Below are positions 49,737-51,329 of a stretch of DNA of 64,000 nucleotides, in pieces. The DNA lies in the NCBI GenBank assembly GCA_947625505.1, contig CANQON010000001.1, positions 28,950 through 92,949 on the forward strand, written 5' to 3'. The notes beneath the pieces are model-generated. The model did no database searches. It saw nothing but the letters and a program-made list of their open reading frames with translations, and was not told where the DNA came from. The DNA is from an uncultured Bacilli bacterium (lineage in GTDB: Bacteria; Bacillota_I; Bacilli_A; RF39; UBA660). Position numbers and translations under genes: made by a program. The stretch's first letter is position 1. Every line of letters begins with the position of its first letter.

Positions 49737-51329
49737 ATGAACGAAAAGAAAACAGTATTATTTTTAATGAATGGATTTGGAACTGAATCCGCTAAATCAT
49801 TTGAAGTATATTCTAAAGAAGTAATGCCTACTTTTGATACACTTATTAACGCTTATCCATTTAAATTATTATTTGCATCAGGTGAATTAATAGGCGCTAA
49901 TAAAAATGAAGTATCAAATTTTAAGACAGGATACTATAACTTTAGTAGTTTTGGACATCCAAGTAAAAAAGAAGATGTTTTAAATAGTAAAATAGCTGCT
50001 AATGAATTTAATAATAATCCTGTTATCAATAATAGTATTGATATAGCTGTTCAAAATAAGTCTAATTTACACATTGTATTTACTTTAGGTGATAAGGTAA
50101 ATAATGAAAGATATGAACATTTAAAACAATATTTAGAATTAGCTGTATCTAAAAACGTTGGTAAGATATATGTACACCTTATTTTAGGTGATAGTAGTAC
50201 AAGAGGATTAAAAATAGGAAGTCAATGCTTAACTAATTTTAAAAATAGAGTTTTACGTTATTATCCTCAAATTATTGTTGCATCACTAGCAGGAAGAATG
50301 TATGTAAAAAATGGATCTGCTAATGATATTGCTAACTATTATCGTATGATGGTTAGTGCCGTAGGAGAAATATGGACAGATTACGAAGCAACTTTAACAA
50401 AAAAATATGAACACGGTATGAATGATGATAATATGATTGCATTCTTAACTATACGTGAAAATATGTTACTTGAAGGTGACAGCATCTTTATGTTTAACTA
50501 TAGTAACAATATAGCAAGACAATTTTTAGATGTTGTTATAAATCCAAAAAAGTATTTTCCAACTAGTAATGTACCAGAAAATATTCATATTAACTCTTTA
50601 TTTACTATTAATAATTTGCCTCAAATACCACGTGCTTTTGAGGATGCTGTACCAGATACTTATTTATTAGATAAAATACCTGATACAAAAAAAGTCTTAA
50701 TTATGGCTACTAAAGAGCGTATACCTTATGTTAGTAAAACATTAAATGGATTTAGGCCTTCATTTAAAAGCAATGTTAGTGTATGGCCAATAGAAGATCG
50801 TAAAAAGAGATTTCAAAGCATTAGTCAGTATTTAGCTGCCTATATTAATCAAGATATATATGATTTAATAATCGTTGATTGTGAATTATATGATGAAGGT
50901 GCTGATGAACGTACGATAGCTAAAGTAATAGATAACATGAAAGAATTAGATAAATGTTTAAATATTACTTATCATCGTGCTATGGATAAGAATTATCGTT
51001 TAATAGCAACTTCATTATATGGAATTAAACAAAGATTTAAGTTAACAGCAACTATGGAATTAGTTGATTTATCACAAAAGACCCCATTCTTACTTGTTGA
51101 TAAAGAAATAAGAAGATTAGATATAGTCTTTAAAAATGAGGGAACATTTATTGATGTAGCTCGTTTAATTGCGATATCTTTTGGTTCTCAAATGTCAAAT
51201 AACTTAATTCAAATAGAAACAGTCGAAGAAAAGAAAAGTAGTAACAAAAAGAAATATATTATATTAGCTATACCAATAGCTATCTTATTAATATTGGTTA
51301 TAGCGTATATTTATATGATGTATTTTTAA
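49737..51329 (+). CDS. catalytically degenerate iPGM (GpmI) paralogue with a C-terminal TM anchor; first gene of the T7SS-like locus
   Basis: It aligns along its length with the window's own GpmI: [11 protein letters not shown] vs VLCIMDGVGER; LLFASGE vs [16 protein letters not shown]…[10 protein letters not shown] vs LHIMGLISDGG…[43 protein letters not shown] vs [31 protein letters not shown]. The catalytic Ser motif and the metal ligands DH/GH/DHG are lost. It ends with a hydrophobic helix, [26 protein letters not shown]. Confidence 0.7.
   Translation: [530 protein letters not shown]

Follow-up and report, generated by a model that had tools for sequence, protein, structure and literature searches.

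Does a phosphoglycerate mutase-like protein encoded directly upstream of type VII secretion system (T7SS) genes act in glycolysis, in secretion, or elsewhere? The question is raised by one gene in a 64,000-nucleotide stretch of DNA from an uncultured Bacilli bacterium (assembly GCA_947625505.1, contig CANQON010000001.1, positions 28,950 to 92,949; hereafter the window). Its 530-residue product, termed pseudo-iPGM here, resembles the bisphosphoglycerate-independent phosphoglycerate mutase (iPGM; GpmI) over its full length and has lost the catalytic residues of that enzyme. We propose that it is a non-catalytic iPGM descendant, which is tethered to the membrane and fulfils a housekeeping role by binding, and that its adjacency to the T7SS genes is positional. 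We give this reading a probability of roughly three in four.

Homology, predicted fold and catalytic positions

The open reading frame (ORF), the domain and signatures within it and the true gpmI gene of the window have the following positions (window numbering; aa, amino acids).

49737..51329, + strand: pseudo-iPGM ORF, 530 aa; iPGM fold over the full length, catalytic residues absent, membrane anchor at the C-terminus
49764..49781, + strand: family signature L-M-N-G-F-G (residues 10-15), which replaces the metal-binding MDGxG; Asn12 in 76 of 76 aligned members
49983..50552, + strand: match to the iPGM_N (transferase) domain (residues 83-272); the substrate-binding residues His123, Arg153, Asp154, Arg191, Arg261 and Arg264 are replaced
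51009..51023, + strand: family signature T-S-L-Y-G (residues 425-429), which replaces ADHGN with the Mn ligands Asp444 and His445
46495..47988, + strand: true GpmI, 497 aa, all catalytic residues present; four genes upstream of the pseudo-iPGM gene

The ORF starts with an ATG codon that has AGGGTG just 5' of it. BLASTP yielded a single collinear alignment of pseudo-iPGM with the GpmI of the window (residues 4-491, 22% identity, E=4e-20), and Pfam matches were obtained to both iPGM_N (PF06415, 1.1e-17) and Metalloenzyme (PF01676, 2.1e-9). With the equivalog model TIGR01307, pseudo-iPGM scored 107.3 bits, which is below the cut-off of 330.65, versus 647.6 bits for the true GpmI of the window. 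These results confirmed the block-for-block alignment with GpmI that had been reported in a preliminary description of the locus. A profile of 76 family members (alignment A3) matched the solved iPGMs in the Protein Data Bank (PDB) over their whole length, with E-values of 2e-40 for the S. aureus, 2.5e-37 for the B. anthracis, and 3e-35 for the G. stearothermophilus enzyme. The AlphaFold2 model computed from the same alignment had a mean predicted local distance difference test score (pLDDT) of 92 and a predicted template modelling score (pTM) of 0.83. When this model was compared with the PDB using Foldseek, the top 22 matches were all iPGMs (E 8e-32 to 2e-24), in agreement with the fold given in the preliminary description; other proteins of the alkaline phosphatase superfamily appeared only at E 7e-6 or worse. 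According to the model, pseudo-iPGM retains the complete two-domain (phosphatase plus transferase) iPGM fold, and its homology to iPGMs extends over the full length.

Sixteen catalytic and substrate-binding positions were compared between the 76 family members and 19 true GpmI proteins from the same loci, using residue numbers that we take to be those of the G. stearothermophilus iPGM (1EJJ). All 16 positions were invariant in 19 of 19 true GpmI proteins. Throughout the family, the nucleophile and seven metal ligands were replaced. The nucleophile Ser62, present in all 19 true enzymes, was replaced by F, L, Y or M in every one of the 76 members, the window protein having Phe, and Asp12 was Asn in all of them. 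Furthermore, His66 was replaced by Y or F, Asp444 by L or F, His445 by Y or F, His462 by D or N, and His407 by D, N or E, while the region around Asp403 was variable and deleted in 19 of 76 members. The window protein carries N, L, Y, D, D and D at the positions of Asp12, Asp444, His445, Asp403, His407 and His462, and does not have the two Mn2+ sites of the enzyme. The six substrate-binding residues listed above for the transferase domain were replaced across the family, and the only partly kept substrate positions were Arg185 (29 of 76 members) and Lys336, the latter as Arg. None of the marks of a functional iPGM (nucleophile, Mn sites, substrate residues, a TIGR01307 score above the cut-off) was found in pseudo-iPGM. 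The former Mn2/nucleophile pocket is filled by conserved hydrophobic or aromatic residues (N12, F63, Y67, L427, Y428); within the TSLYG signature, S426 and G429 are invariant and L427 and Y428 nearly so.

The motif substitutions listed in the preliminary description (MDG to MNG, GNSEVGH to SNFKTGY, ADHGN to ATSLY, and replacement of SDGGVHSH) were all seen in the alignments, and the 76-member table verified the loss of Ser62 and of the Mn-binding residues. The earlier view of a catalytically dead iPGM homologue is thus supported by alignments, profiles, the residue table, the model, and the Foldseek search. Because the nucleophile and the metal ligands are replaced in the family, phosphoryl transfer via a phospho-serine and two Mn ions is impossible in pseudo-iPGM.

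Could the protein still be an enzyme, or a small-molecule sensor, of changed specificity, which would make use of the residual polar residues of the Mn1 site and of the closure of the two-domain clamshell? The conservation of positions 407 and 462 as D/N/E and of Lys336 as Arg would fit such an activity, as would the strongly conserved motifs that line the former cleft (GEIW, FNY, FSxKxP) and a 542-aa family member found beyond the 76 aligned ones (P0091), which still has Asp12 in the sequence FLMDGMG. However, the nucleophile and the whole Mn2 site are hydrophobic or aromatic in 76 of 76 members, five of six substrate-binding Arg, His and Asp residues are gone, and a quarter of the aligned members (19 of 76) have lost the D403 region altogether. 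We know of no catalytically active member of the alkaline phosphatase superfamily that dispenses with these metal ligands. We therefore regard an altered enzyme or sensor as unlikely.

The protein family and its C-terminal tether

A word-indexed search yielded 88 family clusters at 90% identity. The proteins of 69 clusters have about 530 aa and are 34-100% identical to the window protein, and those of the other 19 have 458-481 aa and are 22-26% identical. A pattern scan with one genome per species found 119 relatives, and an exhaustive HMMER search of 1.84 billion representatives returned about 50 family representatives (clusters at 50% identity) with scores from 781 down to about 173 bits; below the family, true iPGMs followed from about 170 bits down. 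Nearly all relatives stem from gut metagenome assemblies of rabbits, humans (Hadza), rodents and ruminants. The sources are labelled "uncultured Bacilli", Clostridium sp. CAG:1000, Erysipelotrichaceae, Mollicutes/Tenericutes, or Candidatus Faecisoma, which is placed by NCBI in Mycoplasmatota incertae sedis. The pseudo-iPGM gene is a core-genome gene of this uncultured lineage of gut Bacilli. Sixteen alignment columns are invariant and 23 are nearly invariant, and the family has motifs of its own, including FNY, LNGxR, YDLIIVD, SLYG and FSxKxP. The family is old and under purifying selection. Pfam and NCBIfam contain no model that is specific for it, and at least two sources mislabel members as "phosphoglyceromutase" or "bisphosphoglycerate-independent phosphoglycerate mutase".

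The preliminary description had derived the gene from a local duplication of gpmI, and this origin did not withstand the profile comparison. The family profile matched the 19 neighbouring true GpmI proteins with 137-184 bits, and the GpmI of the window had the lowest score of all (137 bits). It was thus no more similar to the family than unrelated iPGMs, such as a GpmI of the Bacteroidota that had entered the data set by accident (L084; 164 bits) or the S. aureus iPGM (142 bits). The scores thus give no indication that gpmI was duplicated locally in recent times, and this candidate origin was rejected. Adjacency of the pseudo-iPGM gene to gpmI is confined to two clades, A and B, which are introduced below. 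The duplication is instead ancient, and older than the split of the clades, as the family spans members that now share only 22% identity.

Two longer proteins (P0126, 934 aa; P0136, 737 aa) were considered as domain fusions of the family and rejected. Both are true iPGMs from other metagenomes; they contain every catalytic motif and continue into the membrane protein encoded downstream. One is joined to a transmembrane (TM) segment and a large extracellular domain, and the partner of the other is presumably signal peptidase I-like, as judged by eye. Both could be genuine fusions or the result of frameshifts. The gpmI gene of the window shares 8 nt (47981..47988) with the following gene, which encodes a membrane protein. 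A separate, partly degenerate iPGM-like protein of 508 aa (P0131; LNGWG, GDTKSGY, STHGN) has no membrane tail and suggests that catalysis was lost independently elsewhere.

The second distinguishing feature of pseudo-iPGM is its C-terminus, which contains two overlapping elements.

51222..51326, + strand: C-terminal helix, residues 496-529, the single last helix of the AlphaFold2 model
51255..51326, + strand: hydrophobic tail anchor, residues 507-530, 24 hydrophobic residues after the lysine-rich KKSSNKKK

The N-terminus of the protein is the first beta-strand of the fold, without a signal peptide. Together with the one hydrophobic helix in the last 30 or so residues and the positive charges on its N-terminal side, this is the arrangement of a tail-anchored protein, and the C-terminal hydrophobic anchor noticed earlier was recovered in both the sequence and the model. 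Because a signal peptide is lacking and a positive cluster precedes the helix, the globular part should be cytoplasmic. The retrieved loci contain 85 complete family ORFs, of which 30 terminate in a TM-like 19-mer that is preceded by Lys or Arg. The other 55 end in short, basic hydrophobic tails with a mean net charge of +4.7, for example LIKKKSSLLSIFYKK, VEKKNGLYKLFFK, LIKKKGFKFK and LIRKKSFVVKMLKK. Every complete member therefore carries either a TM helix or a short, strongly basic hydrophobic tail at its C-terminus. By analogy with known membrane-targeting sequences, the basic-tailed members may bind the membrane peripherally. That the tether is maintained by two different devices argues that membrane localisation is essential to the function. 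At the other end of the protein, a few members (P0036, P0039, P0060) have N-terminal Pro/Gln-rich tandem repeats of 150-200 residues ahead of the conserved LFLMNGFG start.

Genomic context and the type VII secretion genes

To place the gene in its context, ORFs were called in 87 pseudo-iPGM loci with 10-kb flanks, searched with the proteins of the window, and the neighbours were clustered. T7SS genes are found directly 3' of the pseudo-iPGM gene only in clade A, which comprises seven of about 86 loci (the window, L005, L008-L011 and L025; at least 53% identity). The upstream gene order in this clade is FtsW (on the minus strand), a small EIIB-like protein, a histidine kinase, GpmI, a membrane protein of about 185 aa, EngB, an unannotated protein (U146), and pseudo-iPGM; downstream follow YukD, two WXG100-like genes, DUF4176 (absent in L011), and EssC. 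Its sister clade B (L001-L004, L012-L018, L021 and L033; 43-48% identity) has the identical upstream block. The 10-kb downstream flanks of clade B contained no T7SS genes. Instead, pseudo-iPGM is followed by a variable set of one or more genes (e.g. an ABC transporter pair or a 2173-aa protein) and then, in most loci, by spoIVA; in several loci ponA and recU come after spoIVA. The more distant clades have contexts of different kinds:

about 22 loci: L13, S9, Abi-like, HtrA, P-type ATPase, pseudo-iPGM, RDD, RpiB, SpoIID, M23
about 16 loci: AAA+ ATPase, pseudo-iPGM, DUF1538, P-II-like
about 10 loci: FolD, pseudo-iPGM, DUF308
about 6 loci: ABC, ABC, pseudo-iPGM, GlyRS, SepF, DivIVA
3 loci: phosphoketolase, pseudo-iPGM

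No gene family accompanies pseudo-iPGM in all clades of the 87 loci.

The T7SS genes of the window form an island, the components of which are the following.

51412..63835: T7SS island, which runs on past the window; outside the pseudo-iPGM unit, it fills the variable slot before spoIVA
51412..51663: YukD-like protein
51680..51958 and 51967..52227: WXG100-like proteins
52244..53191: DUF4176 protein
53267..57901 and 57994..62595: EssC
62564..62839: second YukD-like protein
62888..63835, - strand: small helical proteins

In the genome of the window (99-kb contig), spoIVA lies about 21 kb downstream of the pseudo-iPGM gene. The right end of the slot (51329..~72400) was taken from the loci L168 and L169, and the slot contains the T7SS, six small helical proteins, two unknown genes, and an Alr/ATP-grasp/AsnB-like cluster. 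Locus L025 has a complete T7SS island of about 9 kb (L025:11632-20654) between pseudo-iPGM and spoIVA. The T7SS thus occupies a variable slot, the left border of which is the pseudo-iPGM gene; it is to be seen as cargo of that slot, because clade B combines the same upstream block with other genes before spoIVA and because the T7SS genes of L025 and of the window's genome lie between the pseudo-iPGM gene and spoIVA.

The T7SS of the b type (T7SSb) of this lineage appears to be minimal. It consists of EssC with FHA domains, a YukD-like ubiquitin-fold protein beside each EssC, small WXG100-like proteins, and sometimes DUF4176; the window contains two tandem EssC genes, the products of which are 42% identical. 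The T7SS side was analysed by scanning metagenome contigs of the Joint Genome Institute (JGI) with an EssC alignment, which yielded 80 loci (L088-L167) with EssC proteins 44-53% identical to EssC1 of the window. A hidden Markov model of pseudo-iPGM found no family member within 10 kb in any of these 80 loci. The only widely conserved T7SS genes in them are EssC, YukD and a small WXG-like protein, and their contexts are housekeeping regions, e.g. L13-S9 ... SpoIID (on the minus strand), Abi-like, HtrA. Neither the window nor the complete island of L025 contained genes resembling EssB/YukC, EsaA or EssA, and none belonged to the genes conserved across the 80 loci. The statement of the preliminary description that no EssB-like pseudokinase is present was therefore correct. 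The absence of EssB, EsaA and EssA is a trait of the T7SS of this lineage, since the 80 loci without pseudo-iPGM also have no EssB; it is not compensated by pseudo-iPGM within those loci.

The preliminary description had further proposed that the gene heads the secretion locus and replaces EssB. In this case, pseudo-iPGM would be a cytoplasmic, membrane-tethered T7SS platform that docks, for example, the FHA domains of EssC or substrates. The gene arrangement of clade A is in line with this proposal: in seven of seven loci, the gene lies directly upstream and on the same strand as the YukD, WXG100, DUF4176 and EssC genes, at a distance of 3-82 bp and without a predicted terminator. The missing EssB, EsaA and EssA genes are also in line with it, as is an EssC gene 3-6 kb from distant family members in L067, L083 and L078. 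Yet conserved linkage to EssC across lineages, as expected of a T7SSb component, was not observed. Clade B has the gene at the same position without T7SS genes and usually with spoIVA within a few genes, about 60 further loci have unrelated neighbours, and 0 of the 80 closest EssC loci carry pseudo-iPGM although they also lack EssB. The EssC operons of L067 and L083 run divergently, with a P-type ATPase gene between them and the pseudo-iPGM gene, and the same ATPase accompanies pseudo-iPGM in about 20 T7SS-free loci. As a rough estimate, chance alone would produce about three such EssC proximities in some 60 lineages if the T7SS islands are large and the genomes small. Homology to T7SS components (EssA, EssB/YukC, EsaA/YueB, EsaB/YukD, EssC, WXG100) was not detected, since Pfam and NCBIfam gave only iPGM families; the fold search likewise returned only iPGMs and the alkaline phosphatase superfamily, and thus an iPGM rather than a pseudokinase. 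Neither part of the earlier proposal is therefore supported: adjacency is limited to one clade, and 80 T7SS loci without EssB have no pseudo-iPGM within 10 kb. We consider a T7SS platform that replaces EssB very unlikely, and infer that the adjacency is positional and not functional. There is only a faint chance that the minimal T7SSb (EssC, YukD and WXG100, without EssB, EsaA and EssA) uses the lineage-wide, membrane-tethered dead iPGM as a cytoplasmic platform whose gene lies elsewhere in the genome, with clade A having kept or re-created the linkage. If true, this would be the first glycolytic-enzyme fold recruited into a secretion machine.

The transcriptional arrangement was analysed by a consensus promoter and terminator scan of the region 46.3-53.4 kb, together with the spacers between the genes. 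Three features were used:

48623..49204, + strand: EngB/YsxC-type GTPase, first gene of the tightly spaced run engB-U146-pseudo-iPGM
49235..49675, + strand: U146, unannotated 146-aa protein, directly upstream of pseudo-iPGM in nearly all clade A and B loci
51337..51365, + strand: putative T7SS-operon promoter with the extended -10 element TG-a-TATCAT at 51357..51365, in the 82-bp spacer

Among the promoter-like sites, the best match (TTGACA-17-TATACT, with TG upstream) precedes engB (48568..48596). Apart from this site, the scan was uninformative on operon borders, because promoter-like sites were fewer than in shuffled sequences and no terminator-like sites were predicted in the region. The spacers are 30 bp between engB and U146, 61 bp between U146 and pseudo-iPGM, and 82 bp between pseudo-iPGM and yukD. 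The motif TGnTATnAT is kept in five of the seven clade A loci (the window, L005, L008, L009 and L010), in spacers that are otherwise only about 60% identical. Conservation of this extended -10 element ahead of the T7SS genes suggests that the T7SS operon has its own promoter, which is a further argument against the T7SS platform. In L025 and L011, the first T7SS gene follows pseudo-iPGM after only 23 and 3 bp, so that read-through into the T7SS genes is likely there.

Several neighbouring genes had features of their own. U146 gave nothing significant in Pfam and PDB profile searches. Its family has about 146-160 aa, and in L005 one unrelated gene lies between U146 and pseudo-iPGM. In L167, where pseudo-iPGM is absent, a distant U146 homologue (L167:8571-9056) lies together with core genes for a small membrane protein and RadC, and an EssC gene is located at a distance of about 2 kb. 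Two genes at 44900..46452 of the window keep their place immediately ahead of gpmI in all of clades A and B. One encodes a small membrane protein in which a PTS_EIIB-like motif is weakly recognisable, the other a multi-TM histidine kinase that is an orphan, as no response regulator is encoded next to it. Within the island, the DUF4176 protein (52244..53191) has a long C-terminal Pro/Met/Val-rich tandem repeat, the unit and length of which vary among the clade A loci and which gives rise to three long spurious antisense ORFs (52511..53060). Convergent to the EssC genes are six ORFs of about 102-107 aa, those at 62888..63835 on the minus strand of the window and three in L168:9007-9988, the products of which were taken as helical. 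One of three scanned proteins had a weak EspA/EspE-like Pfam match (E=0.008), and the group could comprise T7SS substrates or chaperones of the WXG-like or LXG-partner kind.

Proposed role and comparison with known systems

The most likely role of pseudo-iPGM is that of a non-catalytic, membrane-tethered housekeeping binding module. The C-terminal helix, or the short basic hydrophobic tail, would keep the globular part on the cytoplasmic side of the membrane, where the protein would bind a protein partner or a ligand instead of catalysing a reaction. The housekeeping function might be linked to the cell envelope or to division. Neighbours in various clades are often envelope, division or sporulation genes (FtsW/SpoVE, PBP1-RecU-DivIVA, SepF-DivIVA, SpoIID, M23, SpoIVA); they provide only a weak lead, as genes of these kinds are frequent and not one partner is kept across the clades.

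Several points weigh against this reading. The binding of a partner or ligand is itself deduced, and the genomic context gives no consistent functional lead, because the neighbourhoods differ between clades. At the former Mn1 site, several positions are still acidic or polar (D/N at 407 and 462), and binding of some ligand or metal is therefore possible. The helical hydrophobic moment of the basic tails (0.42) is not above that of shuffled tails (0.49); an amphipathic helix was thus not demonstrated, and membrane binding by these tails is an analogy. Co-transcription of pseudo-iPGM with the T7SS genes is possible in the window, given the common strand, the short clade A spacers, and the lack of a terminator-like site, and the EssC genes of L067, L083 and L078 do lie within a few kilobases of distant family members. 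The idea that pseudo-iPGM is a functionless, decaying duplicate of the true gpmI 1.7 kb upstream would account for the loss of all catalytic residues but has a negligible probability. The ORFs are intact and uniform in length across 119 species-level genomes, even at identities as low as 22%; the alignment has 16 invariant columns and another 23 that are nearly so; the membrane tether is conserved; the AlphaFold2 model is confident; and the family profile does not favour the adjacent GpmI.

The reading of pseudo-iPGM as a housekeeping binding module has consequences for pseudoenzyme research and for the annotation of uncultured gut Bacilli. Because members are labelled as phosphoglycerate mutase, they inflate the apparent number of glycolytic genes in these metagenome-assembled genomes, which a dedicated model would correct. 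Since the pseudo-iPGM gene belongs to the core genome of an uncultured gut lineage with reduced genomes, it may represent this lineage's own way of solving a housekeeping problem. What looks like an "iPGM-fold T7SS component" results from the position of the gene at the border of an island inserted into a variable slot, and this label should not be propagated. In a full-text search of the literature, we found neither a pseudoenzyme derived from iPGM nor a T7SS component with an iPGM fold described.

How does the family compare with known systems? With true GpmI/iPGM (TIGR01307; PF01676 plus PF06415; PDB 1EJJ, 2IFY, 4MY4), it shares collinear full-length homology, the same two-domain fold, and the core motifs LH, HL, D248, LD.C and VP, and its best matches are iPGMs of the Firmicutes. 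In contrast to them, it has neither the Ser62 nucleophile nor the Mn ligands and substrate arginines, reaches one third of the TIGR01307 cut-off, and adds a C-terminal TM helix or basic tail as well as invariant motifs of its own. PbgA/YejM has a membrane-anchored, catalytically inactive domain of the alkaline phosphatase superfamily that acts as a regulator. By analogy, it is a precedent for a dead, membrane-tethered domain of this superfamily that works by binding, and its structures 6VAT and 5I5D were among the weak Foldseek matches (E ~1e-3). However, YejM belongs to the LtaS/sulfatase type and lies in the periplasm, with five TM helices at its N-terminus, whereas pseudo-iPGM is of the iPGM type, cytoplasmic and tail-anchored, and the two have no specific homology beyond the superfamily. 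EssB/YukC, the membrane-bound pseudokinase of T7SSb, is likewise a pseudoenzyme, has one TM helix, and is encoded in T7SS loci. Its fold is unrelated, an extracellular domain follows its TM helix, and it is linked to EssC across the Firmicutes, whereas the pseudo-iPGM family has this linkage only in one clade. The membrane-targeting sequences of MinD and FtsA resemble the last 10-15 residues of distant family members, which combine Lys/Arg clusters with Leu, Ile and Phe (e.g. KKKGFISKLFKK). Composition and helical moment of these basic tails presumably are like those of MinD tails, while the window protein has a true TM helix instead. Taken together, the pseudo-iPGM family adds a new form, non-catalytic and tethered to the membrane, to a well-known family of enzymes.

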